From positions 1 to 64,000 of the IMG/VR virus record IMGVR_UViG_3300037249_000698: DNA of 64,000 bases, one strand, 5' to 3'. How positions within the stretch are numbered: position 1 is the first letter of the stretch; every line of letters begins with the position of its first letter. The notes under the pieces are model-generated. The model was given only the letters and a program-made list of their open reading frames with translations, ran no database searches and was not told where the DNA came from. Positions 3,618 through 40,315 of this stretch are shown one piece after another. The DNA is from a virus (lineage: Duplodnaviria; Caudoviricetes). The position numbers and the translations under genes are program-made.

Positions 3618-3633
3618 TTTTATCCCCTTTAAG

Positions 3634-4035: not shown

Positions 4036-7015
4036 CCAAGCCTCGTATATCTAATAACTTGTAACAAACACTTCTAGTCTTGTATGCAGAGTATGACATA
4101 GCTTTAGAAATTGGCTCTAACGCACCCTCTAAAACAAGTTTTTCTAGTGTAGCTAAAATACCTTTAGTATAACCGTATTTATATCGAACAAATATTTTTT
4201 GTGATGATAACACGTAATTTAAATAACTAATCGGAACAACACAATCTCTCCGCATAATCTGAATAGTCTTAGCAGGTATATTGGTTGCGTTACACAACAA
4301 TACAAAATCACTTGAAACCAAAAAGCGTTTCATATAATCAAGGATTGTTGTACTCATGGTATTTTCAGCGTTACCTGTCAAGGCTGTTTCACCGTTGTTA
4401 ATCATATCATATACGTTTGCAATATCTTGAAAAACTATTCTACTTGCCCATGCCATGTGCTGAATATTGATAACAGGATCACTATATCTCTGGCATACAG
4501 CACACAAACCTGCGAGTTTTAATATCTTTAACTGGCATCTATTCCAAGCCTGTCTAAAGTGTTCTCTGTCACCTGATTGGTCTAGCATCTCCATACACCA
4601 GTTTTCTAACATCATATTAAATTCATCTGCACTATCATCTAAGCGTATCTGAATAAAACGTGATGCCGTAATTGCAGTTCCGTGACCTGATAATGAACGT
4701 TCCTGACATAATAATTCGTTCAGCTTGTCTAGCACATAATCAGGGCAAGGAATACCAAAAGTTGTTTTATTCTGCGGAACTGCACCGCCTTTATAGGTAA
4801 TTGTTGTAAAACGGCTTAAAAATCCGTCTGATGCCATATCAGGTGTTATAGCGTCTGCGATACCGCTTATTGTTGTTTCACCAACAATACTAAATGCAGG
4901 AGCGTAAGTTTCAGTAAAATTGTTTTCAGCATTACTGTATGTCATAGCTGACAGCATATCGCTTTCAGCAGAGCCAGTGTATAAACGTAAATACTGTGAC
5001 CGTAAACTTTGTGCTGAAACATTTTTTGAGTTCTCACTCATTTCAGCAAGATTTTTACCAAACTCTTTTTGGAAATTCACAAAACTTGCGTACTGCGGTA
5101 TATCAAGGTTAAAGGCGTTATTTGCTCGACCAGTCTTAGAACCTGCCTCCTGTAAACATCTTTTTACAAGTGCCTGTCCTGACGCAAAATCATCGTCTAC
5201 AACATGTCTACGGAAATCCGTTTCAGCATAACGCTTTTTAAGCTGAACTGATAAATCGTTCTTTGTAGTGTGTAAACCCTCTTTACCTATACCACTTCTA
5301 GCACATAAAATAATATAGTTATTCAATCCTGTTGCGGTAGGTAACTGCCACATCTTTCCTACAATACCGCTAATTATAGCAATCACACTTGTTAGACTTA
5401 CCTCTAAAATAGGCTTGATACGTGATTCATAACTCCACTTGGTAAGTTCGTATAACAATCCGCTTGATGTAGGAGGAATAATCATAGCGTTTAAATTTGT
5501 AATACTAAAACCTTTTGTGCAGACAAAACCCTTATCAATAAGTCTTTTATATGATATATCTTTATCGGAATTAAACAGCATAAACTGACTGCTGATAGCA
5601 ACATTTGCTCGCTTTAACTGCTGTGCGACACCTGTGGCGTATAAGGTATCACAAAACATATTCTCTACGGTGTATGACGGATCAGTCTTTTCGTTCTGCC
5701 ATTTAGAATTGACAAGTACAGTTTCAACATCACGATTTATATAATCTCTGTTGATAAATTCATCAATTAAAGCCTTACGTTCAGCCTCTTTTTCTTTTGC
5801 TTTACGGTCTGTAATACGCTCTACAATTTCTTCAGGACAAATTGTTTTAGGTTGTTCGTTAACAGTATCGGTAACTGTAGGATTATCAACGACTATATCC
5901 TCGTTACGTTCACTTTCTCTGATACGTAAAATCATTCTATCGAGATAGTCTGTTCTCGTTGCTTTTGGTCTGCGAGCCAGTTCAGATAATGAGAAAATAC
6001 CCTTAACAATTAAATCGTTTTTACAATATCTTGCAATCAGCGACATAAGTCTGAAATCAGCCTCGGACTGACTAGGGAATGTTAATGTATTGTTTTCGTT
6101 GTAAACTGTTTTGTTCACATCGTTTTCATAGGTGTAATTGCATCTACCCTCAAACAAATCGTTGATAGTTTCCCAATCCGGACAAGTTATTAGTTCGCAG
6201 AGATAGTAGTTAACCTCGCAACTAAACTCGTCTGAATTATCAAACTTAAATTCAGTGTCAATATCAACATCGGCTTTATGGTCAACAGGTGATTTTAAGA
6301 TTGCACATAACTCGTCAAGTTCAGCCTGACGGTTTTCAATCTTATTTGTCTTGCTAACCATTTCTTCTGTAACAACCACAAATCTATCTTCGGAGTACAT
6401 TTCAAAACCGACAATGCCGAGTTCTTTATGTTTTGTACCGCTACGAATACCACTTGCACCTGTACCTTTTGTATTAGGATATTTTACAGGATCTATCTTG
6501 CCCTCGATAATTACATGATAGCCGTTACCTGATACAGAGCGTTCTGTGTAGGAATTAAACTTCTGAATCCATGAGTCTTGATAAGCAATTTCAGCTTGTG
6601 TAGTATCTGCCTTGCGGTCAAAATCAATGATTGTGCAAGGACAATTCTTTGTAAAAACAAAACCCATGCACAACTGCTTTTCTCTATTAACAGGAAACAG
6701 CATTAAGGCATTACGACAAATCTTATCGACCATTTCATAGGTTAACCAACCATTTCTAAACGCTTCGGTAGACGCCGTATTAACCAAATCACCTGTATAA
6801 CGTTTTGAGTTATCATCGGCAATAGTGTAGCTGTAATAGAGCCACAAATCATCGCTAGGACTTATATAATCTTCGTTATCCTTATCAAAATAATGTGGAT
6901 AAACAGCTAATACTTTATCTATCCACTTCTTTGTGACAATAACAGGTATCTTTTCGCCAACTTTAGCAAAACATAATACCCACTGTTTTAATTCTTTTAA
7001 TTTGTCAAAATTCAT
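4022..7015 (-). CDS. primase-polymerase (NrS-1-like) fused to DUF3987-type helicase
   Basis: IIDFD, SVSGNGYHV, EMYSEDRF, SQSEADF; C-terminal ARSGIGKE P-loop and DGFLSRF. Confidence 0.8.
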   Translation of the reverse strand: MNFDKLKELKQWVLCFAKVGEKIPVIVTKKWIDKVLAVYPHYFDKDNEDYISPSDDLWLYYSYTIADDNSKRYTGDLVNTASTEAFRNGWLTYEMVDKICRNALMLFPVNREKQLCMGFVFTKNCPCTIIDFDRKADTTQAEIAYQDSWIQKFNSYTERSVSGNGYHVIIEGKIDPVKYPNTKGTGASGIRSGTKHKELGIVGFEMYSEDRFVVVTEEMVSKTNKIENRQAELDELCAILKSPVDHKADVDIDTEFKFDNSDEFSCEVNYYLCELITCPDWETINDLFEGRCNYTYENDVNKTVYNENNTLTFPSQSEADFRLMSLIARYCKNDLIVKGIFSLSELARRPKATRTDYLDRMILRIRESERNEDIVVDNPTVTDTVNEQPKTICPEEIVERITDRKAKEKEAERKALIDEFINRDYINRDVETVLVNSKWQNEKTDPSYTVENMFCDTLYATGVAQQLKRANVAISSQFMLFNSDKDISYKRLIDKGFVCTKGFSITNLNAMIIPPTSSGLLYELTKWSYESRIKPILEVSLTSVIAIISGIVGKMWQLPTATGLNNYIILCARSGIGKEGLHTTKNDLSVQLKKRYAETDFRRHVVDDDFASGQALVKRCLQEAGSKTGRANNAFNLDIPQYASFVNFQKEFGKNLAEMSENSKNVSAQSLRSQYLRLYTGSAESDMLSAMTYSNAENNFTETYAPAFSIVGETTISGIADAITPDMASDGFLSRFTTITYKGGAVPQNKTTFGIPCPDYVLDKLNELLCQERSLSGHGTAITASRFIQIRLDDSADEFNMMLENWCMEMLDQSGDREHFRQAWNRCQLKILKLAGLCAVCQRYSDPVINIQHMAWASRIVFQDIANVYDMINNGETALTGNAENTMSTTILDYMKRFLVSSDFVLLCNATNIPAKTIQIMRRDCVVPISYLNYVLSSQKIFVRYKYGYTKGILATLEKLVLEGALEPISKAMSYSAYKTRSVCYKLLDIRGLDEVR

Positions 7016-9665: not shown

Positions 9666-10436
9666 TTAGAATGGTAAATCATCTAATTCGTTCTTTGGTG
9701 GTGTAGGTTCTTTTGAAACGTTATTAACTGGCGTACTGTTAAAATTGTTACCACCAAAATTATTGTTGCCTAAACCACCTGTCATTGAAACGCTGTTTAC
9801 AAGTTTTGCCTGTTCAGCGAGTTCTGCCTCCTTTTCCTTAATTACTTTCTGTAAATAAGTAAAATCTTTTCCGATACTTGTAGCAGGTAAACCTTTCCAA
9901 ATTTCGATACCGCTTTGCTTATTCTTGTTATACATAAAATACAGAGCATACTTAGGGTATATCTGACCGTTAGAACCCGTGTTTTCACCAGTCTTTACGA
10001 TACCCATGTAGATACGCTTATTACACAAGGCTTTGTACTGACGGATTGGCTTACCATCATAACCAATGACTTCTGTACCATCTTTCTTAGTCATATTGGT
10101 TTCCTCGCAACCATTACGATTATCGGTGATAAGTAACAGTTGGAAGATTTTTGTTTTTGCCTTTTCGTTAGTTTCATCTAAACTAAAATTAACCTTGAAC
10201 TTGCCTAACACATCTTCTGCCTTTGAGTATGCTACGCAAGTACATTCGATAATATCATTTGTAGCACCTGTATTGCTGTTTGTGAGAGTCTTTACAATAG
10301 CAGAACTAATCTCACAAGCGTACATTCCTGAACCTACCCATTCAAGCTCTTTAGTATCAACAAAGTTTCCACCGTTAGAGCCTGTGTCTAACATTTTTGT
10401 GACCTGATCATCAGTAGCGTTTATATTAAGATTCAT
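9666..10436 (-). CDS. putative ssDNA-binding protein
   Basis: G/N-rich linker and acidic DDLPF C-terminus; next to recombinase. Confidence 0.65.
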   Translation of the reverse strand: MNLNINATDDQVTKMLDTGSNGGNFVDTKELEWVGSGMYACEISSAIVKTLTNSNTGATNDIIECTCVAYSKAEDVLGKFKVNFSLDETNEKAKTKIFQLLLITDNRNGCEETNMTKKDGTEVIGYDGKPIRQYKALCNKRIYMGIVKTGENTGSNGQIYPKYALYFMYNKNKQSGIEIWKGLPATSIGKDFTYLQKVIKEKEAELAEQAKLVNSVSMTGGLGNNNFGGNNFNSTPVNNVSKEPTPPKNELDDLPF

Positions 10437-10495
10437 AATCTTTCCTTTAAATTGTTAACAATGTGAATAAATCGTATTATATTTTACAGGATTTG

Positions 10496-11377
10496 TCAAT
10501 CCTTTTGTTCGTCTTTTGATTCCGCATTTTTCTTCAATTCTTCTAATTCGGCTCGTCTTTTCTTAAATAAGTCTACAATTATAGAACTTTCTGCCATATT
10601 CATTTTAGGTTTGATTTCTTTGAAATACGCACCTAGTTTTTGAGTATCGTTGATATTAAGCAGTTCAGTCTTAATATCCTCTAACGGCGTGTATGAAATT
10701 GCTACAACATCCTCAACAGCCTTTTCAACCTTTTTTACGGTAGGCTGTGCAATAACGTTTGTGTACTGACTTGCAGGCTCGTTGCTGATTTCTCGTGCCT
10801 CCTCGGTTGTTATTACACCTTGTAGCACATCAGGGAATATATCTCGGAACGCATAAGTCTTGGCTCTCTGACTAGCCATTCTTTCAGGATATTTCGCCCA
10901 CACGCCCTTACCTAATAAACCTGCTCTCTGTGCCTGCTGTAATGAGAATGTGCGTGTTTCAGGCTTACTCATGTCTTTACGTTTGATTGTGCAGATAGCC
11001 GTGTTAGTGGCATAGTCAAAAGATTCCTCTTTGTAATCCATTAACCCTGACTTGTAGATAATCGCACCTAAAGCATCGCCCCATACTGTCATTTTGCCGT
11101 TAACAATCATTGTGCAATCGAGAGCTAATTTTGCACCGATACCCAGTGATTCACCATAGCTTATACACGCCATAGCCTCGTCTAACTTCTGCTCGGAAAT
11201 TTTATTATTGACCTTATCATCAACATAACGAGCAGGCAACACACCGTGTTCAAAACAGAAACGCAACTTCTCACGATACGCTTTTTGTTCGTCAATACTT
11301 AAAGTCTCTAAAGGTTTTGCAGGTGGATTTTCTAAGTCTATGTCTGCTACAATCACATCATTCTTTTCTTTTACCAT
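10496..11377 (-). CDS. RecT-like ssDNA annealing recombinase
   Basis: GESLGIG...IVNGK...WGDAL, AQRAGL, WAKYPERM, FRDIFPDVLQG. Confidence 0.85.
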   Translation of the reverse strand: MVKEKNDVIVADIDLENPPAKPLETLSIDEQKAYREKLRFCFEHGVLPARYVDDKVNNKISEQKLDEAMACISYGESLGIGAKLALDCTMIVNGKMTVWGDALGAIIYKSGLMDYKEESFDYATNTAICTIKRKDMSKPETRTFSLQQAQRAGLLGKGVWAKYPERMASQRAKTYAFRDIFPDVLQGVITTEEAREISNEPASQYTNVIAQPTVKKVEKAVEDVVAISYTPLEDIKTELLNINDTQKLGAYFKEIKPKMNMAESSIIVDLFKKRRAELEELKKNAESKDEQKD

Positions 11378-11380
11378 AAA

Positions 11381-12076
11381 TTACTCCTTGTAGTCAGGTA
11401 AGTCGTTTAACGCCATGATATTCTTAATATCCATACTGGATATAACGTTTTGCAATTCCAAAATTTTATCAGCTATAGTTCTGCTATTAAAACACGATAT
11501 TGCCACAAAAAACAACTTTAATTCTCTAGGGTCGGGATAAAACTTTTTCAGTAGTTTAATCATATACACCTTTGAATTGTTTTTATGATAAGCACTTCCT
11601 AAATATCCTGCAAGAGCAAAAAGAGCGTCAGGAATTAAAAATATATTGTGCTTAATTCTCTTAACAACATCCTCGACTTCTTCCGGAACTTTATCATCAA
11701 AAGAACTGACAACTATATCAACTGCTGGCTGATTTCCGTGTTTTACCTTGTATTCAGCAAACATAATTTCGCAGAATGACGGTGTTTTAAGCAGTAAATA
11801 CTGGTCATTTTTAAACACGTATAACTGATTTGAATATCGCTTAATTGCCATATTTGAATAAATGTCGATGCTGATAATTTTTGACTCGGCATTTTGAAAA
11901 CGTATATCGTTCTTATTTAATCGTTCAATAAGTGTTTTGCTATGAATTTCGTTAAACACATCGCTATAATCTTTCATGTAATATCTACCGTTGTATTTTG
12001 CAAGAACCTTATTAACAGGAACGCCCTGTTCCATAACCTTTACAAACACAACCTTTGCTAAATCTCTAATAATCAT
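11381..12076 (-). CDS. hypothetical protein
   Basis: 231 aa ORF, TAGGAG RBS. Confidence 0.75.
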   Translation of the reverse strand: MIIRDLAKVVFVKVMEQGVPVNKVLAKYNGRYYMKDYSDVFNEIHSKTLIERLNKNDIRFQNAESKIISIDIYSNMAIKRYSNQLYVFKNDQYLLLKTPSFCEIMFAEYKVKHGNQPAVDIVVSSFDDKVPEEVEDVVKRIKHNIFLIPDALFALAGYLGSAYHKNNSKVYMIKLLKKFYPDPRELKLFFVAISCFNSRTIADKILELQNVISSMDIKNIMALNDLPDYKE

Positions 12077-12084
12077 GTGTTCTC

Positions 12085-12558
12085 CTAATCTAAAAACATA
12101 ATATCGCTGTTATCAAATTCAAAGTCCGTATCACCGTTTAAGAGGCGTAACTTAACTTCGGGTAATATCTTGCTATCCATAAAATCTGAAAACTTATCTG
12201 TATCTTTATTGCACTTGTACCAATATGTATAAATAGTGTTAACCGTGTAACCAGTTACTTTTGACAAAGTTCTAGCAGGAACTACTTTTCCGTGATACAT
12301 AATTTTGCAGTTACCGTTACTAAACATTTGCTCTTTCTGTAAATCGTTCTTAAATGGTATTTCGTTTAAACCCCATGTTTTTACAACTTTATCGTTTGGG
12401 ATTAAGACTATGTTATTAGTAAATCCACCCTCTGATAAAAAACCGTTATTCTTTGAGACTACTCCCATAACGCTTTCCCAATCGATAACCCCATCAATTA
12501 TTTGTTTTGCTAGATAGTTGTTCAAGACAGCATACGAAACATCTCTAATCTTCTTCAT
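12085..12558 (-). CDS. hypothetical protein, possible HTH
   Basis: LSKVTGYTVNTIY HTH-like. Confidence 0.65.
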   Translation of the reverse strand: MKKIRDVSYAVLNNYLAKQIIDGVIDWESVMGVVSKNNGFLSEGGFTNNIVLIPNDKVVKTWGLNEIPFKNDLQKEQMFSNGNCKIMYHGKVVPARTLSKVTGYTVNTIYTYWYKCNKDTDKFSDFMDSKILPEVKLRLLNGDTDFEFDNSDIMFLD

Positions 12559-13039
12559 TTACGACTCCATATTTTTCCATGTTCATTAGTATTTTATGCA
12601 ATTCCTCTATTGTTTGCATCATACTAATAAATAAATCTTTATTTGTATCACATATTTTATAAAATAGTTTTTGTTTTAAACACATTAATTCTGCGATTGG
12701 TTTATTGTCACTGTTATAAAATTTCATTTTTAACAACGGTACTATAAACTCTGTTTTTCTCAAATCGTTCATATACTGTTGATAATTACATGATATTAAA
12801 TCAGACAATATTTTGACAGAACGTTTTATATTATCCTGATTTTCTAGTATCACATCATGTAATTTATTAACAACTGGCTTATCCCATTCAGCAACGCCTA
12901 ATTTTATATGCTCAATTTGTTTAGGCGTGATACCTATATATTTATATAGCACTGTTGGTTTTATGTGTATCAAGTGACAAATGTTAATCAAGTCGGCATA
13001 ATTCAACAGTGTCATATCGTAGTTTGTGTAGTAAAGCAT
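12545..13039 (-). CDS. hypothetical protein
   Basis: ORF with AAGGAA RBS. Confidence 0.65.
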   Translation of the reverse strand: MLYYTNYDMTLLNYADLINICHLIHIKPTVLYKYIGITPKQIEHIKLGVAEWDKPVVNKLHDVILENQDNIKRSVKILSDLISCNYQQYMNDLRKTEFIVPLLKMKFYNSDNKPIAELMCLKQKLFYKICDTNKDLFISMMQTIEELHKILMNMEKYGVVNEED

Positions 13040-30439: not shown

Positions 30440-31168
30440 TTAATTATTAGATTCAAAAAGGGATTCTTCATCAAGTTCAACAGTCTCAACGGTAACATTA
30501 TCTTTATTTGTAATGTCTTTCCCTAAAATTGCGAACTTTACTTTCCAACGTAAATAAGCCGGAGAGCGTAAAACCTCCTCAATTTTCTTTAATCTTTCCA
30601 CAGGATTTTTATTTTCCTTTAAAATCTTTGCGACAGTAGTTCTTGAAACACAATAATGCTTTTCAATTTCCCTAACACTGGTAAATTCTTTATTACCAAT
30701 CATATAATGATGCTTTAAATCCTTTGTTAAAGCGTCTTTTATACTAAAGTTGCGGTTTAATCGTAAAGATACCGTATTATTTTTTACACCCCAGTATTCC
30801 GCACGTTCTTTGTGAGACTTAAACTTGTTACCCAAGTGATCCTCACATTCTTTTTCTACAGACTGCACAGGTGTATTCAGAATTTTATCTAAATTCCATC
30901 CCTGTTTCAGTCTATGAAAATATGTCGGCTTATCAATTCCGTATTCCTTGCATAACTCATAGATATTTCTATAATGTTTGCCACCGTAATTTACGCCACC
31001 GCTTTTATACGTGCGAGAGTTTGTTGTTAAAGCTCGTTCTAAATCCCATTTATAACGGAGTCTCGCTCGGACAGTCACCGCATCAATACCATAGTAATCG
31101 CACATGTCGTTAAAAGATGGAAATTCATTTCCTAAATGATCGCAAACGTTCTTTTTTGCCATATTCAC
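30440..31168 (-). CDS. protein with repeated HTH-like DNA-binding modules
   Basis: repeats DHLGNxFxS...R.RL..GW.LE.AL. Confidence 0.65.
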   Translation of the reverse strand: MNMAKKNVCDHLGNEFPSFNDMCDYYGIDAVTVRARLRYKWDLERALTTNSRTYKSGGVNYGGKHYRNIYELCKEYGIDKPTYFHRLKQGWNLDKILNTPVQSVEKECEDHLGNKFKSHKERAEYWGVKNNTVSLRLNRNFSIKDALTKDLKHHYMIGNKEFTSVREIEKHYCVSRTTVAKILKENKNPVERLKKIEEVLRSPAYLRWKVKFAILGKDITNKDNVTVETVELDEESLFESNN

Positions 31169-31520: not shown

Positions 31521-31581
31521 AGTGACTTATATCACAAATTTCAAACTTACTATTGACAAATAAAAACTGTTATGCAATAAT
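31521..31581 (+). promoter_or_regulatory. early promoter with CRP-like site
   Basis: AGTGA-N6-TCACA; TTGACA-N17-AATAAT with TG extension. Confidence 0.75.
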
Positions 31582-31616
31582 GACATCATGTTGATAACAC
31601 ATAAGGAATTAAACAA

Positions 31617-32035: not shown

Positions 32036-32073
32036 TTGACAATTTAAAATGATAGGTATATAATGTACCTATC
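32036..32073 (+). promoter_or_regulatory. early promoter, -10 inside inverted repeat
   Basis: TTGACA-N17-TATAAT; GATAGGTA/TACCTATC. Confidence 0.85.
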
Positions 32074-32096
32074 TTTTGAAAACAGGAGTTAAAGAT

Positions 32097-32420
32097 ATGG
32101 AAAAGAATTTAATTGCAAAGTGTGTTGATATTGTTAAACAAGGGGATATTGAAGATCGTTATCCTTTTGAAATGAGTGTGTATTTAATATACGATAACGG
32201 CACTTGTGAAAACGATGAAATGTATCAAATGTCATGCGATGATATGGAATTTGTAACAGGTATGAAAATTGAAGAATTAAACGGATTATCTGATATTGAA
32301 ATTGCTAGAATTATTGCGGAAAATTCCCATCCATACGGCATCGGAGATGAACAGGATGTGTATGATTATTATTCTAGCGGATTACGTTATTATTCTAATA
32401 CTATTGCTATTAAATTATAG
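32097..32420 (+). CDS. acidic early protein
   Basis: CAGGAG RBS. Confidence 0.8.
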   Translation: MEKNLIAKCVDIVKQGDIEDRYPFEMSVYLIYDNGTCENDEMYQMSCDDMEFVTGMKIEELNGLSDIEIARIIAENSHPYGIGDEQDVYDYYSSGLRYYSNTIAIKL

Positions 32421-32428
32421 GTGACTAT

Positions 32429-32731
32429 ATGAACAAAATTACAGATGATATTGAAAAATTAGCTACTGAATGTACTAACAAATTACAAGATTTAACAGGC
32501 TATAACTATGTAATTAAACCATCCACAGGAGGCACAATACAGTTAGATATTTATGAGTCTTTAGAAGATAGTGATCTCTATTTAGCAAACATCACATATA
32601 AATCAAGACATGATTTGTATGATAGATTAGTGATATTCAAAAACAGTTTAGATATACTAAATTTGATAACTGATAATAATACTAGACAAGCTGTAGAATG
32701 TTACCTGTTTAACATTTTCAATACTTACTAA
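32429..32731 (+). CDS. early hypothetical protein
   Basis: TAGGTG RBS. Confidence 0.7.
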   Translation: MNKITDDIEKLATECTNKLQDLTGYNYVIKPSTGGTIQLDIYESLEDSDLYLANITYKSRHDLYDRLVIFKNSLDILNLITDNNTRQAVECYLFNIFNTY

Positions 32732-32740
32732 AATTTATTG

Positions 32741-32769
32741 TTGACAAATGGATTTTATTATCGTAAAAT
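32741..32769 (+). promoter_or_regulatory. early promoter
   Basis: TTGACA-N17-TAAAAT. Confidence 0.8.
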
Positions 32770-32802
32770 ATGGTTATCAATTTGGTTAAGGAGCAAACAC
32801 AA

Positions 32803-33351
32803 ATGAAATTTTTTAAAAATACTGAATGTGCATTAAAAGAAGATTTAGAAAGTCTTGTAAAAAATAGTATGAATCTAGATACTTTTATCAAATTGTATAA
32901 CTATGATAATACTAATAGCATAATACCATTTTCAGAAATAGATCGCTTTATGCAGGATATTATTTTTGATTGTTACGGCAATTATGATTTAATACTCGCA
33001 AATATTAAGAAGCTAAAAGAAATCAAACAACAATTAAAAGCGAATGATTTTGATATTTTTACAGAAGATCATGATGATCAATCGGACTTGTATTTTATTA
33101 TAAACGGAAATGATATAAAGGATTATTTCTTTGCACATGAATTTGAAAATTTATATGAAGATGAATCCACAAGTAACAAGTTATTATTAGATGCTTGTGA
33201 ACTTGTAATTAACAATATACTTGCAAGTTATAAAGCGTATTTATCACTTGTTGAAAGGATGAATAAAATTAATGATGTGAAAAATGATGTTACTATCAGA
33301 TTAGAAAACCTGTTACGCTGTTATGATGAATTATGCAAACTTGAAAAATAA
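32803..33351 (+). CDS. early hypothetical protein
   Basis: AAGGAG RBS. Confidence 0.8.
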   Translation: MKFFKNTECALKEDLESLVKNSMNLDTFIKLYNYDNTNSIIPFSEIDRFMQDIIFDCYGNYDLILANIKKLKEIKQQLKANDFDIFTEDHDDQSDLYFIINGNDIKDYFFAHEFENLYEDESTSNKLLLDACELVINNILASYKAYLSLVERMNKINDVKNDVTIRLENLLRCYDELCKLEK

Positions 33352-33363
33352 TCAAAATATTTG

Positions 33364-33406
33364 TTGACAATTAAAATAAGATATAGTAATATATACTATA
33401 TCTTAT
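33364..33406 (+). promoter_or_regulatory. early promoter, -10 inside inverted repeat
   Basis: TTGACA-N17-TAATAT; ATAAGATATAGTA/TACTATATCTTAT. Confidence 0.85.
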
Positions 33407-33425
33407 GAAACAGGGAGCAAACACA

Positions 33426-33839
33426 ATGGATAATCAGATAATTAAAAAAGTATTAAATGCTATGTTTGATAACGGATTAGAAAGTTTTATTGAAAAAATG
33501 GTTTTCAGTAAAGCTAGATATAAGGATGATTATTTTAAAAAGTATTTCAAGACTAATGATAAAATCTATTATTTAACTTATAATCAGTATTCTAATATGG
33601 TATGTAGTAATATTGAAATAGAATTACAAGAAATTGATGAAGATTTGATCGGTTATACTCCTGTAGACTCTGAAAGAATTGTGCTTTATGATACAGTGAA
33701 CGATGCTTGGGATAGTTTTAGATCTAAACATGATGATGATAATTTAACGGATTCTGAAATGGATGCTTTATATGAAGATGAATACAAAGACATTATTTTT
33801 GAAGATGTGATAGATATTCTATCAAATTATTGTTATTAA
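33426..33839 (+). CDS. acidic early protein
   Basis: AGGGAG RBS; acidic C-terminus. Confidence 0.8.
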   Translation: MDNQIIKKVLNAMFDNGLESFIEKMVFSKARYKDDYFKKYFKTNDKIYYLTYNQYSNMVCSNIEIELQEIDEDLIGYTPVDSERIVLYDTVNDAWDSFRSKHDDDNLTDSEMDALYEDEYKDIIFEDVIDILSNYCY

Positions 33840-33842
33840 CTG

Positions 33843-33871
33843 TTGACAAAAGAAAAATTATATAGTATCAT
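33843..33871 (+). promoter_or_regulatory. early promoter
   Basis: TTGACA-N17-TATCAT. Confidence 0.8.
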
Positions 33872-33904
33872 GTATAACATCAAATAACAAATGGAGTTGA
33901 ACAA

Positions 33905-34423
33905 ATGAACACATCAATTATAAAACATGCTAACGTACGTAACATTAAAGACAAAACTGTTGTTGATGTTGATTACGGATTGGAATATATAAAAGGAAAT
34001 AGGGATGCATATTTCTTTATAACCGGCACTGAATATCATGCAAATAAAAACGGTGAACGTGATGCAAGGCGTAAAGATTGTATTCAGTGCGGAGCAATAG
34101 GAGAATATATTTGTACCTTAAACAAAAATTTTGAAGATTTAAATCACTTTCATGGTAGATATGCGGATGGATCTCCATTATATCCTGTTGAAAATGGTTT
34201 GTTTTGGTTAGGTTGCACTAAATATGAAGCGTTTAATTTAAAATACGTGTGTGAACATTTTATGATAAATGAACAGGAGGCATACAGACTTAAAGATATT
34301 ATTCATTCAGAAATGGATGATAATAAAAAGCGTGAAATTTTACAAAATATTATTGATACTGAATATAAAAGTAAATGGTTAGCGGAGGCAAAACGGATTC
34401 GAGATAAGTATAACTTGTGGTAA
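33905..34423 (+). CDS. early hypothetical protein
   Basis: YFFITG...CGAI...GSPLYPVENGLFW. Confidence 0.8.
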   Translation: MNTSIIKHANVRNIKDKTVVDVDYGLEYIKGNRDAYFFITGTEYHANKNGERDARRKDCIQCGAIGEYICTLNKNFEDLNHFHGRYADGSPLYPVENGLFWLGCTKYEAFNLKYVCEHFMINEQEAYRLKDIIHSEMDDNKKREILQNIIDTEYKSKWLAEAKRIRDKYNLW

Positions 34424-34440
34424 AAAATTTAAAATAACTA

Positions 34441-34482
34441 TTGACAATACAAAAAGGATAGAATATAATGTATCTATCCTTT
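34441..34482 (+). promoter_or_regulatory. early promoter, -10 inside inverted repeat
   Basis: TTGACA-N17-TATAAT; AAAGGATAGA/TCTATCCTTT. Confidence 0.85.
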
Positions 34483-34518
34483 AGAAACAAAGCGAGTTTA
34501 ACACAAAAAGGAATTATT

Positions 34519-34836
34519 ATGGAAACTATTAAAGAAGTACGACAGGATATTAAAAACAAATTAGAAGCTATAAATCAAGATGATTACATGGTAGAAAATG
34601 ACTTAAAATTAGTATTTGCTCCATCCTGTGGTAAATATCGTATCGAATTAACAGGGAGTGTAAACAAGGTATTTTTTGCACATAATCTCCGTGAATACAA
34701 GCTATGTTTATATAATTTTCACTCTTTAACTTGGATTTTGAGTAGACATTATAAGAATCCTAACACTGATGATGTTTTATCTATACAAAGTGTTATTGAA
34801 CTTTTGGAGCATTGCGGATTTTATTATTATTGTTAA
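34519..34836 (+). CDS. early hypothetical protein
   Basis: AAGGAA RBS. Confidence 0.75.
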   Translation: METIKEVRQDIKNKLEAINQDDYMVENDLKLVFAPSCGKYRIELTGSVNKVFFAHNLREYKLCLYNFHSLTWILSRHYKNPNTDDVLSIQSVIELLEHCGFYYYC

Positions 34837-34852
34837 ATTTTAAAAATAGTTG

Positions 34853-34893
34853 TTGACAAATAAATTAAGATAGTGTATCATAACACTATCTTA
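34853..34893 (+). promoter_or_regulatory. early promoter, -10 inside inverted repeat
   Basis: TTGACA-N17-TATCAT; TAAGATAGTGT/ACACTATCTTA. Confidence 0.85.
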
Positions 34894-34922
34894 TAAAGAA
34901 AACCTAACAGGAGTACCAAAAA

Positions 34923-35621
34923 ATGGGATGGGATGGAATTTATATCAGTGAACCGCACAAAACTGTATCTGAAAAGTTATCTGTATATTTCAAGTATCAC
35001 GGATTTTGTGAAAATGAAGTTGTAAAAGCTACTATCAAAAATGGTGTTGTTTACGGAGCAATCCGGAACTTAAAAACAAATGATGTATGGGCTATGGTTA
35101 GTTTGTTAAAATTCAGAAAGGATGGATGGCAAACTGAAATGCTAGTAAAAAATATGAGTGAAGATATGATGCCGTATTATTTTGATTGCCCTAAAGCTAT
35201 ACTTGATTTATTGACAAAAACTGATAATGAACATTCTAACGAATGGAGAAAAAGATGCTATGAACAGTTAGCAAACCAAAAGGAAAAAGCAAAAGTAAAA
35301 AAGAGTCCATATATTTTTGTAAAATCCGGTATTAGATTTAGCATGGGTTGTACTTATCATGTGTTTGAAAAAGATTCTACTATGCGAACTAAATATCATA
35401 CCTTTGAAACAGGATATGGATTAAGAATCAGTCATATAAATGATTTTGATGTGCAGTACATATCAGAAGAACAATATTTAAGATGTAAGGATGCATATTA
35501 TAAGATTAGGGATGCTAAAATTTTAGTAGAGTATGAAAAGACTAACGATCCGGAAATGATTAAATTATCACAATTAGAATTATGTGATGTATATCAAAAT
35601 ATTATAAATCAGACTGAATAA
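34923..35621 (+). CDS. DUF6927-like protein
   Basis: MGW start; KNMSEDMMPYYFDCPKAILDLL...EWR. Confidence 0.65.
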   Translation: MGWDGIYISEPHKTVSEKLSVYFKYHGFCENEVVKATIKNGVVYGAIRNLKTNDVWAMVSLLKFRKDGWQTEMLVKNMSEDMMPYYFDCPKAILDLLTKTDNEHSNEWRKRCYEQLANQKEKAKVKKSPYIFVKSGIRFSMGCTYHVFEKDSTMRTKYHTFETGYGLRISHINDFDVQYISEEQYLRCKDAYYKIRDAKILVEYEKTNDPEMIKLSQLELCDVYQNIINQTE

Positions 35622-35624
35622 TTA

Positions 35625-35667
35625 TTGACAAATAAAACTAGATAGATTAAAATAAATCTATCTAGTT
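35625..35667 (+). promoter_or_regulatory. early promoter, -10 inside inverted repeat
   Basis: TTGACA-N17-TAAAAT; AACTAGATAGATT/AATCTATCTAGTT. Confidence 0.85.
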
Positions 35668-35684
35668 AGCAAGGGAGTTATATT

Positions 35685-36107
35685 ATGGGATATGAAGTAA
35701 GGGATGTGTTTGATATATTAGAAAAAGAATTAACAGATTATTTTTTGTCTTTACCTGTTGAAAAGCAAGTACCATTAATAAATGAATATTATAACACTAT
35801 TAAAATTATAAAATTAACAGATTGTCTATCAGATGATCAAATGGAAAATTTTTATAAAAAAGTTGAAAATTTATATGTAGTATTTTTTGGTAAAACTACA
35901 TTAGAACCGATTATTTATACAAAAACGGAATTGATAAAACAAGACTGGTTTATACATGCCATTAAAACATTATGTTATTGTTATGATAAATTTTCTTTTG
36001 ATGATATTGAAGATTCTCATATTCAAGATATTATTATAACTATGCAAAATGTCGCAAGGGCAATAGACAAAATTAAAAATCAAAAAGTTGAAATAATTTT
36101 AAAATAA
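35685..36107 (+). CDS. early hypothetical protein
   Basis: AGGGAG RBS. Confidence 0.8.
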   Translation: MGYEVRDVFDILEKELTDYFLSLPVEKQVPLINEYYNTIKIIKLTDCLSDDQMENFYKKVENLYVVFFGKTTLEPIIYTKTELIKQDWFIHAIKTLCYCYDKFSFDDIEDSHIQDIIITMQNVARAIDKIKNQKVEIILK

Positions 36108-36110
36108 TAG

Positions 36111-36152
36111 TTGACAACAAATAAAGATAGTATTATAATGATACTATCTTTA
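36111..36152 (+). promoter_or_regulatory. early promoter, -10 inside inverted repeat
   Basis: TTGACA-N17-TATAAT; TAAAGATAGTAT/ATACTATCTTTA. Confidence 0.85.
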
Positions 36153-36171
36153 ATACAGGGAGTAATAACAA

Positions 36172-36648
36172 ATGATGATAGATTTAGAAATTATTATTGA
36201 AGAATTAGATCGCTTTTATAACGTTCACTGTTTAGAAAATGATAGATTAAACAAGTTTTCAAAGTGCATTATTGAAGATGCAAAAAGAATGATAACAAAT
36301 GTTATTTCAGACTATGGATTTGAAATTGAGTCTAAACAGGAATTAGCAAAACGGATTTCAAAAAACAGATATGAATATTTAGATCTCACAAAATTTGCGG
36401 AATTAATATCATCCTGTAGTATTGATGCGGAAATTTGCACAGATACAATTTATAAAAGATATTTATCAGATAATCTGTATAATGCGTATAAGAATGAAGA
36501 TCCAAGTTTTGAAGATGCTAGAAAACGTATGATCGGATATAGACAAAATATGACTGATATTTATTTAGAGGCTAAAAGTTATGCTAAGGCATGGCAAAAA
36601 ATCGAACGTATTATTGATGATATAGAAGAATTTAAACTAACACATTAA
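36172..36648 (+). CDS. early hypothetical protein
   Basis: AGGGAG RBS. Confidence 0.8.
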   Translation: MMIDLEIIIEELDRFYNVHCLENDRLNKFSKCIIEDAKRMITNVISDYGFEIESKQELAKRISKNRYEYLDLTKFAELISSCSIDAEICTDTIYKRYLSDNLYNAYKNEDPSFEDARKRMIGYRQNMTDIYLEAKSYAKAWQKIERIIDDIEEFKLTH

Positions 36649-36656
36649 AATAATTG

Positions 36657-36697
36657 TTGACAAGTTTTGTGAGTAGTAGTAAAATACTACTCATAAA
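36657..36697 (+). promoter_or_regulatory. early promoter, -10 inside inverted repeat
   Basis: TTGACA-N17-TAAAAT; TGAGTAGTA/TACTACTCA. Confidence 0.85.
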
Positions 36698-36719
36698 CCA
36701 AAAACAGGGAGTTAAAATT

Positions 36720-37253
36720 ATGAATGATTGTGAATATATAAAAGACTTTTGGACTAATGATGATGTTAGAATTGTTTACAGTACAGACTTTTTGAAACAG
36801 GATAAGGAAAACGATTTTAAAAAAGCTATTGAAAACCTGTATGAATATATGGTAAACGGAGATTTTGAAACAGAATTTGATTTTGATGTAGAAAACGATT
36901 ATTGCATCTTATGTGAAGAATATCCGGAACTTGAAACATATAATATCTTGCATCGTATGGGGGATTTAGACTCATATTGTGAAGAATTTAATATAACAAT
37001 TAGTAACTTTTTGGAAAATATGGATGATAGCTTTAGTTTGTGCGATAATTATTTTTGTGATAGTAGACAATATATAAGCGGAGATAGTTTAACTAGTTTT
37101 AATATTGATTATTTAGATATTGTTAGACAAATAGCATTTTCACCGGAAAAATTACTACAATTTGAAAACGGAAAAAACATTATTTTAAAAAATTTAGATT
37201 GTGACCATTTAAAAAAGATACTTATTGATATTCTAAACTGTATTGAAAAATAA
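36720..37253 (+). CDS. acidic early protein
   Basis: AGGGAG RBS; weak similarity to 31617. Confidence 0.8.
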   Translation: MNDCEYIKDFWTNDDVRIVYSTDFLKQDKENDFKKAIENLYEYMVNGDFETEFDFDVENDYCILCEEYPELETYNILHRMGDLDSYCEEFNITISNFLENMDDSFSLCDNYFCDSRQYISGDSLTSFNIDYLDIVRQIAFSPEKLLQFENGKNIILKNLDCDHLKKILIDILNCIEK

Positions 37254-37256
37254 ATC

Positions 37257-37299
37257 TTGACAATATTTTTAAAGTAGTATAGATAATTCTATACTACTT
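37257..37299 (+). promoter_or_regulatory. early promoter-like element with inverted repeat
   Basis: TTGACA; AAGTAGTATAGA/TCTATACTACTT; -10 poorly spaced. Confidence 0.6.
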
Positions 37300-37319
37300 A
37301 ATAAAGTAAAGTTATAGAT

Positions 37320-37412
37320 ATGGAGAAAAACGGATTGTATTATTTTTGCTTAATTATTCTTTTATCATTCCTGTTTGTTATTGATAACATTCTTTTACAG
37401 ATAATGAGATGA
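37320..37412 (+). CDS. 30-aa hydrophobic peptide (not in ORF track)
   Basis: MEKNGLYYFCLIILLSFLFVIDNILLQIMR; weak RBS. Confidence 0.35.
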   Translation: MEKNGLYYFCLIILLSFLFVIDNILLQIMR

Positions 37413-37444
37413 TAAACGGAATTTAAATTTTTTTAAAATAGTTA

Positions 37445-37473
37445 TTGACAAAAGAAAAATAGTATATTATCAT
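37445..37473 (+). promoter_or_regulatory. early promoter
   Basis: TTGACA-N17-TATCAT. Confidence 0.8.
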
Positions 37474-37558
37474 ATATAGCATAGTAACGGAGCAATATCA
37501 AAAAGTTAAACCTGTTACTGATTAAAAAACGGATTATAAATAAAAGGAATATAACACT

Positions 37559-38587
37559 ATGAATACTAAAATTGAAACTCTTATTAAAAAATCACTCTGT
37601 TTAAACTCTAATACCAATAAAGTTTTAGTTAGTCAAAAAGACAATATTTTGACTCTTGAAACATCAAACTTTATGGTTAAAATTCCTGTTAATAGTAATG
37701 AAACATTTGAAGGTTTTACAAGTTCTGATATTATTAAATCTAACAGTATTGATAATATTAAATTTATCACTCGAATTGAAGATACTTCAAACGAATATAG
37801 ACACGAATTTAAAACTTATTCCAAAAAGGTAGTTATTAATCCAGTAAATTTTAAAAAGTTATTATTACAGAAAACACAGAGTAATAATGCAAATATTTGT
37901 GATGCCGTATGGTTTAATTACGATAATATGTATGAAACAAACGGACATTACATCATAGCTATAAATAACGCTTATTCAGAAAACGATTGTACTTTTGGAA
38001 TAGATAAAAAGATTGTAGAACTATTAAAAAATTGTACTGAATACTTGTTTGTAAGTTATGAAAATAATGATACAGATTATCACAAATCACAAAATACCAG
38101 TATAGAATTAAATATTGACGGAATACTATTTCATTATAATTCAGTAATTACTATTTGTGATTTTAAGTCTATGATCCATAATGCTATGAGTTTTAAATCA
38201 CAAATTTTAAAGGAATACAAGTTTGACAATTTAAAGGAATTTTCAAAACTGTTAGCGAGTGCTAAAAACGATGAAAAAAGGATTGTATTAGATTTTAAAA
38301 AGGATAAATTGACCGCATATAACATCTTTAATGCAGGTACTATAAACAATTATAAAATGAGTGAGATCGGCACATGTAACAGTAATTATCATTCAGATGA
38401 TGAATTAAATAGAATTGTAATTGATAGTAACTATGCAAAAAAGATAAAAGATGCGATTAAAAATGATGCGGAAATATTATTAAAATTAGAGGGAGATAAA
38501 AGATACGGAATAAATAAAATGACCATTAGAAATAGTAATTTGACTTTAATTATTATGGGAGTTGTGAATTGTAATTTTATTGAATAG
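37559..38587 (+). CDS. divergent beta sliding clamp (DnaN)-like protein
   Basis: ETNGHY ~ ATDGHR, IDSNY ~ FNxxY, LIIMGV ~ YVVMP; 342 aa. Confidence 0.5.
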   Translation: MNTKIETLIKKSLCLNSNTNKVLVSQKDNILTLETSNFMVKIPVNSNETFEGFTSSDIIKSNSIDNIKFITRIEDTSNEYRHEFKTYSKKVVINPVNFKKLLLQKTQSNNANICDAVWFNYDNMYETNGHYIIAINNAYSENDCTFGIDKKIVELLKNCTEYLFVSYENNDTDYHKSQNTSIELNIDGILFHYNSVITICDFKSMIHNAMSFKSQILKEYKFDNLKEFSKLLASAKNDEKRIVLDFKKDKLTAYNIFNAGTINNYKMSEIGTCNSNYHSDDELNRIVIDSNYAKKIKDAIKNDAEILLKLEGDKRYGINKMTIRNSNLTLIIMGVVNCNFIE

Positions 38588-38669
38588 TCATAAAAATTAT
38601 AGGGAGTATATATGAATACTCCCTATTAAATCAGTATGAAAAACGGATTAAAAATTTTTAAATTTTTTA

Positions 38670-38698
38670 TTGACAATAAAAAGTCATTGTAGTATCAT
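38670..38698 (+). promoter_or_regulatory. early promoter
   Basis: TTGACA-N17-TATCAT. Confidence 0.8.
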
Positions 38699-38740
38699 GT
38701 ATTCCATACGATGAACGGATAACAAATACGGAGTAACGAT

Positions 38741-39094
38741 ATGAATACTTTAAAAGATTTAATTAAAAATTCATTCCATAATTTTAATGAAAAATTTTCT
38801 TTATTAAAAAATGATGTTTTCTATACTGTAGAGATCCAGTATGATTTAAATGTGGAATATTCAGATCCGGAAATTGTTGTATGTATGGAGACAAAAAAGC
38901 ATAAAATTGAATTTAGTTTTCATTTGAATAGTTTTTTTAATGATTATTATAATGGGGATAATTTTGAAAAACAGTATAATCATTTTCAAAATTCTGTTTT
39001 AAACTCTATTAGAAACAGATATTCATTTGTTAAACATAATGATGATAGTTTTATTAAAAAGTGCTTTTTTGGAGGTCAATATATATATTACTAA
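38741..39094 (+). CDS. early hypothetical protein
   Basis: ACGGAG RBS. Confidence 0.75.
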   Translation: MNTLKDLIKNSFHNFNEKFSLLKNDVFYTVEIQYDLNVEYSDPEIVVCMETKKHKIEFSFHLNSFFNDYYNGDNFEKQYNHFQNSVLNSIRNRYSFVKHNDDSFIKKCFFGGQYIYY

Positions 39095-39139
39095 TAATGT
39101 GATACAGGTCATAAAACGGATTATTTTAAAATTGACCTG

Positions 39140-39168
39140 TTGACAATTAAAAAACAATATGCAATAAT
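39140..39168 (+). promoter_or_regulatory. early promoter
   Basis: TTGACA-N17-AATAAT with TG extension. Confidence 0.75.
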
Positions 39169-39200
39169 ATATTCATGTTTTGAGATATGGAGTAAACAAT

Positions 39201-39440
39201 ATGACTAATAAAGAATTTAGCGAATACAGATCCGGCAAAAAATGTGCTTCAGAATATATCATGGAGCTTGTCAATATACGTGTATATAATCCGGATAGTT
39301 TAACATCAAGACAATTAAAACAGATTATTAAAGATAAAATTGATTTATCAAATAAGTTAATTACTGATAATAATCAAGTATCATTTAATCAAGGTTATAA
39401 ACATACTATGGAGGATTTTTTACACTTCATCACAAAATAA
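39201..39440 (+). CDS. early hypothetical protein
   Basis: ATGGAG RBS. Confidence 0.75.
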   Translation: MTNKEFSEYRSGKKCASEYIMELVNIRVYNPDSLTSRQLKQIIKDKIDLSNKLITDNNQVSFNQGYKHTMEDFLHFITK

Positions 39441-39452
39441 ATCAAATAGTAA

Positions 39453-39494
39453 TTGACAATTAAAAAAGATAGTATTATGATAATACTATCTTTT
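39453..39494 (+). promoter_or_regulatory. early promoter, -10 inside inverted repeat
   Basis: TTGACA-N17-TATGAT; AAAAGATAGTATTAT/ATAATACTATCTTTT. Confidence 0.85.
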
Positions 39495-39513
39495 AGAAAA
39501 CAGGAGCAAAAAA

Positions 39514-39840
39514 ATGACTATTAAAAGATCTGATATTGATTTTCTTGTAAATGATATAAATGAACAGTTAAAAAATTTTTATTTATCAAATATAGATAAA
39601 ATTGTCGCTAGAAAAGATCAAAAAGGATTCTGTATTGAATATATAATTAATGGTAAACAATCAAATAGTTTTTATGCTAACCTTAGTAAAAATCAGATTT
39701 ATATTTTTCTTGAAACATTAAACAGGTTATTATATAAAAATGTGACCATAACAGGATGCACAGATACCGAAGATCAGAAAAAAGGCAATACAGATTTAAT
39801 CGTTAATTTGATTGAATTTTGGAATAAATCAAATATATAA
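39514..39840 (+). CDS. early hypothetical protein
   Basis: CAGGAG RBS. Confidence 0.8.
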   Translation: MTIKRSDIDFLVNDINEQLKNFYLSNIDKIVARKDQKGFCIEYIINGKQSNSFYANLSKNQIYIFLETLNRLLYKNVTITGCTDTEDQKKGNTDLIVNLIEFWNKSNI

Positions 39841-39868
39841 AATGTGGAAATAAATCACAAAATTTTAA

Positions 39869-39934
39869 AAATAGTGTTTGACAATAAAACAAAATTAGTT
39901 TAGAATGATACTCATAAATCGTTAAACACTATTT
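39869..39934 (+). promoter_or_regulatory. early promoter enclosed by inverted repeat
   Basis: TTGACA-N17-TAGAAT; AAATAGTGTTTGAC/GTTAAACACTATTT. Confidence 0.8.
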
Positions 39935-39947
39935 AAGGAGTACAAAA

Positions 39948-40259
39948 ATGATTATTTTAAACACTGAAAACAAATTAAAACTTGAAATTATTTACAATGT
40001 AATTAGTTCTATTATTTATGATTACAGAGTAACTTTAAATTTAAGTGCTAGATACAGAATTGAATTTTCATGCGATAAAGGTATTGTATCCGCTGTATTC
40101 TTAGATAATGATGAAGAAGTAATTAAATGCGATACTTTTAAGGATATATCCTTTTATAAAATGTTTTATGGATTCGTAAACGGCATTATTATTGAATATG
40201 CTTATAACGATATAGTAATTGAACAGGAGCACAAAATTATTGCCACAATAAAAATCTAA
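39948..40259 (+). CDS. early hypothetical protein
   Basis: TAAGGAG RBS. Confidence 0.8.
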   Translation: MIILNTENKLKLEIIYNVISSIIYDYRVTLNLSARYRIEFSCDKGIVSAVFLDNDEEVIKCDTFKDISFYKMFYGFVNGIIIEYAYNDIVIEQEHKIIATIKI

Positions 40260-40277
40260 CAGGGATCACAAAATTTA

Positions 40278-40315
40278 ATAGTGCTATTGACAACAAAATT
40301 GAATAGCACTATAAT
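40278..40315 (+). promoter_or_regulatory. early promoter with inverted repeat across -35/-10
   Basis: TTGACA-N17-TATAAT; ATAGTGCTATT/AATAGCACTAT. Confidence 0.85.

Follow-up and report, generated by a model that had tools for sequence, protein, structure and literature searches.

Why should a series of phage promoters carry inverted repeats centered on their -10 boxes, with arms that differ from copy to copy and yet always pair with their own partners? This question is raised by nine promoters on the + strand (positions 32036-39494) of a 64,000-nt stretch of DNA, hereafter the window, which comprises the first 64 kb of the 95,133-bp virus record IMGVR_UViG_3300037249_000698. The record has direct terminal repeats, is rated complete, and represents an uncultured, lytic-looking 95-kb rumen phage with a GC content of 34.6%. 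Our preferred answer, to which we assign a probability of roughly 60%, is that the nine elements are composite modules in which an early promoter is combined with a stem-loop, of the type known as promoter-early stem-loop (PeSL), whose hairpin forms in read-through RNA. We infer that this RNA hairpin would terminate or stabilize transcripts and that the promoters would be active early.

Replication genes occupy the minus strand of the genome up to ~31.2 kb. An array of small rightward genes extends from 31.5 to ~44 kb and is followed by the lysis and structural genes. Almost every gene of the array has a consensus TTGACA-17-TAnnnT promoter and a GGAG-type ribosome site in front of it. Among 20 array proteins, Pfam names only one (DUF6927), PHROGs returned solely families of unknown function, and no DNA-binding domain scored above threshold. 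Neither a tyrosine recombinase (PF00589) nor a serine recombinase (PF00239) was found in the complete genome, and the phage lacks an integrase. For the portal, head, terminase, and tail proteins, the matches are to PHROGs of the siphovirus type and to Seurat-like or PaMx25-like phages, the portal protein being ~45% identical.

The nine elements follow one plan. Each contains a perfect inverted repeat of 8-15 bp that is centered on the -10 box and encloses a loop of 1-10 nt (for elements 1-9, arms of 8, 13, 10, 11, 13, 12, 9, 12, and 15 bp and loops of 7, 5, 10, 6, 6, 7, 6, 4, and 1 nt). The nine -35 positions, the arm sequences, and the centering on the -10 box proved to be as given in a preliminary description of the window. 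The promoter spacer is taken up by the left arm and the loop corresponds essentially to the -10 hexamer, with the right arm extending from approximately -6 to +8. Eight elements possess TTGACA, a 17-nt spacer, and a TAnnnT hexamer, the exception being element 8, and the TTGACA-17-TAnnnT promoters score 10-12 of 12 matches. The modules occupy 63-95 nt between two small genes, with the upstream stop codon 3-17 nt 5' of the -35 box and a GGAG-type ribosome site 17-36 nt 3' of the hairpin. In all nine elements, the predicted transcription start (+1, 7 nt after the -10 box) coincides with position 4-9 of the right arm. The core AGATAG...CTATCT, with a constant 12-13 bp between its halves, recurs in six or seven of the nine and is absent from elements 7 and 8.

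This arrangement is far more frequent than expected by chance. An inverted repeat of at least 8 bp lies across the -10 box in 9 of the 18 consensus promoters between 31.5 and 43.8 kb, compared with a mean of 0.22 and a maximum of three promoters in 5000 shuffles of the spacer and downstream bases. Moreover, the 95,133-bp genome contains 15 perfect inverted repeats of 10 bp or more in total, of which 7 belong to the nine elements; most of the other repeats in this size class are AAAGG...CCTTT terminators. No -10-centered element was found outside 32.0-39.5 kb in the whole 95 kb. As negative controls we used nine loci (L136-L144) of unrelated phages that share a DNA methylase and lack such promoters, and none of their 15 TTGACA-17-TAnnnT sites had an inverted repeat of at least 7 bp at the -10 box. 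Pairing was equally regular: all 96 of the 96 loop-proximal pairs in 12 distinct elements (eight pairs each) are Watson-Crick pairs, with three or four pair types represented at every position, whereas dealing the right arms among the elements gave 41% Watson-Crick pairs (maximum 74%).

The conservation of the elements was assessed in 13 contigs from rumen metagenomes whose arrays are syntenic (L117-L125 and L131-L134); these contigs were obtained through homologs of the DUF6927 protein (34923-35621; 48-97% identical in these contigs). Other searches were less productive. Megablast of the region against GenBank phages and scans of Joint Genome Institute (JGI) metagenomes with invariant promoter strings gave no match, a scan of IMG/VR for TTGACA...AGATAG...CTATCT returned single chance matches only, and an IMG/VR search with a 342-aa and a 242-aa protein of the window found no relatives. 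Distant homologs of the 242-aa protein belonged to phages without a syntenic early array (L126-L130). One of these contigs, L127, encodes two proteins of ~1,050 aa with leucine-rich repeat (LRR) and dockerin domains (3581-6883 and 9734-12853), which hints at a cellulosome-bearing rumen host for that phage.

Among the syntenic relatives, conservation is much higher in the promoter modules than in the genes. Divergence from the window amounted to 17 of 680 positions (2.5%) in the left arms and 22 of 680 (3.2%) in the right arms, compared with 57 of 361 (16%) in the spacer outside the arm, 94 of 522 (18%) in the leader, and 64 of 319 (20%) in the corresponding spacer zone of repeat-free promoters. 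The low divergence of the arms indicates selection on them of roughly the same strength as on the -10 box.

The individual elements differ in how much they vary. Element 1 (32036..32073; TTGACA-17-TATAAT) comes after a stop codon (32027) and drives 32097-32420; its arms, GATAGGTA / TACCTATC (32051-32058 and 32066-32073), flank the loop TATAATG. Its stem is longer in L131 and L134 (AAAAGATAGGTA / TACCTATCTTTT), and G.U-type changes occur in L118, L120, and L122. Element 2 (33364..33406; TTGACA-17-TAATAT), which drives 33426-33839, has the arms ATAAGATATAGTA / TACTATATCTTAT and a 5-nt loop, and these arms show no variation in any relative possessing the element. The arms of element 3 (34441..34482; TTGACA-17-TATAAT; AAAGGATAGA / TCTATCCTTT, loop of 10 nt; drives 34519-34836) are likewise invariant among the relatives. 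In element 4 (34853..34893; TTGACA-17-TATCAT; TAAGATAGTGT / ACACTATCTTA, loop of 6 nt), which drives the DUF6927 gene, everything from the -35 box through the right arm is identical in every relative, with the downstream protein down to 48% identity. Element 5 (35625..35667; TTGACA-17-TAAAAT) has the arms AACTAGATAGATT / AATCTATCTAGTT, a 6-nt loop, and the gene 35685-36107 downstream. Element 6 (36111..36152; TTGACA-17-TATAAT; TAAAGATAGTAT / ATACTATCTTTA, loop of 7 nt), driving 36172-36648, has G.U-type changes in L118 and L131 and, in L124, a single A.C change.

Element 7 (36657..36693; TTGACA-17-TAAAAT; arms TGAGTAGTA / TACTACTCA) lacks the GATAG core and drives 36720-37253. Its RNA stem reaches 13 pairs only through a G.U pair (TTTGTGAG.../...CTCATAAA), and folding of the sense RNA is favored over that of the antisense RNA by 4.6 kcal/mol. 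Element 8 (37257..37299) combines TTGACA with a poor -10 box (TAGATA, where the relatives have TAGTAT) and has the arms AAGTAGTATAGA / TCTATACTACTT, a 4-nt loop, and no conserved open reading frame (ORF) downstream. A tiny frame of 30 codons that follows it (37321-37413) is not conserved and has lost its ATG in L124 and L131; this unit (37257-37445) may yield a non-coding RNA product or none. Element 9 (39453..39494; TTGACA-17-TATGAT; AAAAGATAGTATTAT / ATAATACTATCTTTT, loop of 1 nt), which drives 39514-39840, is also present in L118, L119, and L125, where nothing but the loop and the outermost pair has changed. The stems of the 12 distinct elements are also skewed in composition. In the eight loop-proximal pairs, G-C occupies 27 cells and C-G only two, with G almost always in the left and C in the right arm, so that the left arms are purine-rich and the initially transcribed region is pyrimidine-rich.

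Conserved palindromes at promoters could be operators. Palindromic operators over the -10 box are formed by the repressor and Cro sites of lambda or P22-type phages, and a dimeric phage or host repressor that binds AGATAG-N12/13-CTATCT over the -10 box could shut off the early promoters together at a later stage, with the hairpin as a by-product. The elements resemble such operators in their -10-centered dyad symmetry and in the half-site-like (A)AGATAG / CTATCT(T) core of six to seven copies, which keeps its spacing and its place relative to the -10 box. The near invariance of the arms among the relatives is in line with this explanation as well, since most arms simply do not change over the divergence sampled, as sequence-specific recognition would also have it. 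A candidate repressor is encoded next to the array. The first gene of the leftward operon (30440-31168, minus strand), divergent from the early array, encodes a protein of 242 aa, which is kept in all relatives and is the sole candidate DNA binder adjoining the array. It has several sub-threshold helix-turn-helix (HTH) matches (HTH_36, E 8e-5; PVL_ORF50) and PHROG matches to the DNA-binding parts of homing endonucleases. By eye, we recognized no match to a Fur box or any other host operator known to us.

The pattern of variation does not fit recognition of one sequence. The inner positions, which a reader of half-sites would leave free, are complementary in every element, and the non-core positions co-vary perfectly. 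Elements 7 and 8 are perfect palindromes without the AGATAG core, and the same applies to two elements in the relatives. One of them, L117:10709, is the ortholog of element 5 (same upstream gene end; downstream protein 79% identical) and has the arms AAACTGATGT / ACATCAGTTT, in which the GATAG core is gone and the pairing retained. The other, L134:4761, is part of an additional cassette (80 aa) that has a consensus promoter to itself and, across the -10 box, a new palindrome of 13 bp (ATTAAGCTATGAT / ATCATAGCTTAAT). In element 8, all relatives have AAGTAGTGTAG / CTACACTACTT instead of the arms found in the window, which is a compensatory A:T to G:C change. The arms of this element are also retained in L118, L119, L131, and L132, where the loop measures 20-21 nt instead of 4, although the additional 16-17 nt would destroy any half-site spacing. 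Thus, a single repressor that reads AGATAG cannot explain the changes in elements 5 and 8, the L134 palindrome, or the core-less elements 7 and 8. These compensatory changes, the arms of the new cassette, and the growth of the element 8 loop between unchanged arms bear out the earlier proposal that selection acts on pairing rather than on one operator sequence. A single repressor possibly acts on the six or seven core-sharing elements, and an operator function would be compatible with a role in RNA too, leaving room for an added layer of repression. The array itself encodes no protein with a supra-threshold DNA-binding domain, and altogether we regard operators as an unlikely explanation of the elements.

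If pairing is selected, it may be selected in RNA or in DNA, and the kind of mismatch tolerated in the arms can distinguish between the two. The -10-centered elements contain 13 distinct one-sided arm changes: eight are G.U-related, i.e., they create or remove a G.T pair on the + strand (G.U in the sense RNA), one gives A.C, and four are transversions. As background we used the 4707 differences between the window and seven relatives in the same region (47% transitions, with a mild purine bias). Relative to the ~25% expected from it, G.U-forming changes were overrepresented (8/13; p = 0.006), as they were relative to A.C (8:1; p = 0.03), in a set of 13 hand-counted events from alignments of non-independent relatives and with part of the excess explained by the purine-transition bias of the sense strand (A<->G 1243 vs. 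C<->T 950). For the wobble-pair variants, the sense RNA folds 2-7 kcal/mol better than the antisense RNA. The bias in the arm changes points to the sense-strand transcript, or at most to the + DNA strand, as the likely carrier of the structure. It argues against duplex recognition, for which a bias on one strand is meaningless, and against cruciforms, which need both strands.

Cruciforms would nevertheless have attractive consequences. Under negative supercoiling, AT-rich palindromes could extrude and thereby hide or expose the -10 box, or they could absorb transcription-driven supercoils between adjacent promoters. If so, the early promoters would sense genome topology, being active on newly injected, relaxed DNA and silenced once it is supercoiled, or the reverse, and would form a protein-free timer for the switch from early to middle expression. 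The palindromes are perfect, AT-rich, strictly centered on the -10 box, and similar in size to the classical ColE1 cruciform with its 13-bp arms and 5-nt loop. In 1988, Horwitz and Loeb reportedly found that cruciform extrusion repressed an E. coli promoter which had been obtained by selection and whose -10 region was palindromic. Both strands must fold in a cruciform, and each tolerated G.T on the + strand is an A.C on the - strand, which costs the antisense fold 2-7 kcal/mol. Extrusion would be very unfavorable for element 8 with its 20-21-nt loop, whose arms are retained all the same. Hairpins that leave out the -10 box occur at other promoters of the array, and the centering in the nine elements is explained more simply by the free positions of a compact consensus promoter. 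We therefore consider a DNA-level mechanism of this kind improbable, and it is just as doubtful that the palindromes have a function in DNA, be it in addition to RNA or in its place.

How a hairpin over a -10 box could act in RNA is suggested by the layout of the modules. Each module would pack the upstream stop codon, a consensus promoter of the host sigma70 type, the hairpin, and the ribosome site of the next gene into one short gap. Because the stop codon is located 3-17 nt before the -35 box, polymerase arriving from an upstream promoter would transcribe both arms, and the resulting stem of 10-17 pairs could terminate or attenuate transcription or protect the 3' end of the transcript. Since the predicted +1 lies inside the right arm, the module's own transcript would lack the left arm and could not fold the hairpin. 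Hence, the hairpin would be seen by read-through RNA only, and each cassette would be expressed mainly from its own promoter. The centering on the -10 box would follow from the compactness of the gap, where two fixed hexamers 17 nt apart leave no other room for arms of 10-15 nt; the hairpin would occupy the sole freely variable promoter positions, namely the spacer and the stretch after the -10 box, and leave the invariant hexamer as its loop. It fits this proposal that the first promoter of the array, which has no gene on the same strand upstream, carries no such repeat. The conserved hairpins placed elsewhere around other promoters of the array are consistent with it as well and recall the several subclasses of PeSLs.

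The proposed RNA hairpins share some properties with intrinsic (Rho-independent) terminators. With -10 to -16 kcal/mol, the stems are about as stable in RNA as the phage's own classical terminators (-11.7 to -16.9 kcal/mol), and they often have A-run and T-run flanks (AAAG...CTTT). The preliminary description had noted few classical terminators between the units, and indeed stem-plus-T-run sites on the + strand were found only at 40636, 41398, 43250, and 43729. Several observations weigh against the read-through hairpin, in addition to the common core, the invariance of most arms, and the small number of G.U events mentioned above. The stems contain few G-C pairs and are followed by only 2-4 U in eight of the nine elements and by none in element 7. 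A simple terminator scan produced no + strand call for any of the nine, but three calls on the - strand. The short U-tracts and the lack of + strand calls make efficient intrinsic termination doubtful. Moreover, the promoters at 32741, 33843, 37445, and 31553 have no hairpin at all, so that insulation is not universal. The hairpins may hence serve in attenuation, partial termination, or protection of 3' ends rather than in strong termination. The three calls on the - strand were also considered as antisense terminators, which we rejected, since there is no promoter on the minus strand to feed the region and since the + strand is favored by the wobble bias.

The evidence for a sense-strand RNA structure would apply equally if the hairpins in a read-through polycistronic RNA were cut by RNase III or another structure-specific nuclease to give monocistronic messages, as RNase III does at RNA hairpins of the T7 early region; short U-tracts would also be compatible with such processing. 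However, stems of 8-17 pairs are shorter than RNase III substrates, which typically comprise roughly two helical turns, and processing is not needed for monocistronic RNA where each gene has a consensus promoter of its own. The region has no match among the Rfam families. Processing sites thus seem a poor prospect to us.

The modules also appear to organize the turnover of the array. Gene content varies among the 13 related contigs, and we mapped junctions by blastn against seven relatives followed by inspection. Six of eight insertions, deletions, or replacements had both ends in intergenic modules or gene ends, and two lay inside genes. L120 lacks promoter 3 and its gene, with the junction in the AT-rich stretch between stop codon and -35 box, and L122 lacks the 182-aa gene, with the junction in a shared 12-nt leader homology (GGAGCAAACACA). 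In L117, the 136-aa gene and element 1 are missing through a leader-to-leader junction with a short AAACA match, and 37252-40264 is missing through a junction that joins a gene end to the sequence immediately preceding the next module. Gene bodies between conserved modules were replaced at 36186-36644 in L117 and at 38755-39098 in L125. The deletions inside genes concern 32482-33725 in L118 and 32162-32784 in L120. All mapped junctions are located beside the stem-loop or inside genes, and none lies within an arm or loop. As read from these alignments, the modules are the seams of cassette shuffling, and their repeated flanks, i.e., the AT-rich stretch with the -35 box and the Shine-Dalgarno leader, could provide short homologies for cassette loss, gain, and swap. 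With junctions outside the arms and no gene for a tyrosine or serine recombinase in the genome, the pattern fits recombination between these regulatory flanks by homology or microhomology.

The preliminary description had offered three interpretations, namely supercoiling-gated promoters, RNA processing sites, and recombination sites of an integron-like cassette array, and had suggested a comparison of cassette order in relatives. A hairpin in read-through RNA fits best, as the one-sided changes are mostly G.U in the sense strand, and the integron-like array has to be abandoned. The comparison did place breakpoints in the modules (in the AT-rich stretch before the -35 box, the Shine-Dalgarno leader, and the gene ends), although not in the inverted repeats themselves. 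Gain, loss, and replacement of cassettes among the relatives would suit site-specific recombination, and the attC sites of integrons are likewise conserved in structure and not in sequence. Breakpoints in AT-rich stretches, leader homology, microhomologies, or gene bodies and a complete genome without a tyrosine or serine recombinase speak against it. Template-switch (quasipalindrome) correction could also create palindromes and maintain their perfection in the absence of a selected function, but such a mutational origin is difficult to reconcile with the strong purifying selection on the arms and the strand-biased substitutions. We think it highly improbable that either recombination sites or such correction underlies the elements.

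Hairpins in other positions accompany further promoters of the array (all + strand). At 40278..40315, 11-bp arms (ATAGTGCTATT / AATAGCACTAT; hairpin 40278-40312) hold the -35 box of promoter 40287 in the loop, and the right arm reaches into the -10 box; this hairpin is kept in L117, with one further A.C change, and in L118 and L125. The whole promoter 39878 is enclosed by 11-bp arms at 39869..39934 (AAATAGTGTTT / AAACACTATTT), which are kept in L118 and L125. At 39104..39168, a hairpin with 8-bp arms (ACAGGTCA / TGACCTGT; 39104-39140) abuts the -35 box and ends on the first -35 base of promoter 39140; it is kept in L118, L119, and L125. A free-standing 11-bp hairpin (38599-38626) lies 3' of the gene for the 342-aa protein and is followed by promoter 38670 (to 38698), itself free of an overlaid repeat. 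No inverted repeat lies across the -10 box of the promoter with which the rightward array begins (31553..31581). In its leader (31553-31616), the relatives have a 6-bp stem TTATGC...GCATAA that extends into the ribosome site, and the window pairs TGTTAT...ATAACA instead.

Three promoters without a palindrome, 33843, 37445, and 38670, have TAG-TATCAT-(G/A)TAT around the -10 box in common, and their leaders are conserved across the relatives, which suggests that they might form a separately regulated class. L118 and L125 precisely lack an 88-nt segment (~37340-37427) that is flanked by direct AACGGA(T/A)T repeats. The AACGGA(T/A)T motif recurs before or after several palindrome-less promoters (37445, 38670, 39140, and 40287) and may be the mark of a second promoter class.

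Promoter-associated hairpins are known from other systems. In Frpo, a hairpin creates a duplex -35 and -10 box, and the virion RNA polymerase promoters of phage N4 consist of short GC stems with 3-nt loops that are read by the phage polymerase. The elements described here also combine a promoter with a hairpin, but the duplex promoter is already a perfect host-type consensus, and folding would remove the -10 box from the duplex.

The closest counterparts are the PeSLs of phages RB49 and phi1, which combine strong sigma70-type early promoters with terminator or attenuator stem-loops and are concentrated in hyperplastic regions with genes of unknown function (Arbiol et al. 2010, PMC2839356). Five positional subclasses were distinguished, G-T pairs were marked in the stems, and inter-PeSL recombination was found to shuffle cassettes; one stem-loop lowered lacZ expression about as much as rrnB T1 (PMC2839356). 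In the literature searched, the term is used mainly in papers on T4-type phages, and PeSLs were later extended to other members of this group (T4/PST and KVP40/nt-1 among the T4-type myoviruses; Comeau et al. 2014, PMC4122927). In contrast to the earlier view that PeSLs have a different geometry, their stem-loops are most commonly located in the interval separating the -35 from the -10 box or overlap the -10 box (PMC2839356). The present elements agree with PeSLs in the strong sigma70-type consensus promoter and stem-loop in a short gap between small genes of unknown function, in the AT-rich stretch upstream and the Shine-Dalgarno sequence and start codon downstream, in the overlap with the -10 box, in the occurrence of several positional subclasses in one genome, and in the tolerance of G-T pairs. 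They also lie in a hyperplastic region, in which relatives differ by whole cassettes with junctions in the modules. As far as can be judged from sequence, they have every trait by which PeSLs are recognized and are not a new kind of element.

Differences exist in the carrier, a 95-kb phage with Seurat-like siphovirus portal and head proteins instead of a T4-type myovirus, in the AT-rich stems with an AGATAG core instead of GGGG...CCCC, in the strict geometry common to nine elements, and in the crossovers, which lie beside the stem-loop and never inside it. Terminator activity and mini-circles have been demonstrated for the PeSLs of RB49, whereas the elements studied here are known from sequence alone. 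Given the non-T4 lineage of their phage, we regard them as analogous to PeSLs, with no link by descent implied. With nine elements of one geometry, a +1 inside the right arm, and compensatory as well as strand-biased changes in orthologs, the array is an unusually clean case and would be a good system to ask whether such hairpins terminate, attenuate, or stabilize read-through RNA and how they shape cassette shuffling. Our analysis extends the PeSL design from T4-type myoviruses to unrelated, uncultured rumen phages with AT-rich stems, and this extension supports the view of the design as a general solution, reached convergently, to the packing of independent cassettes of accessory genes.

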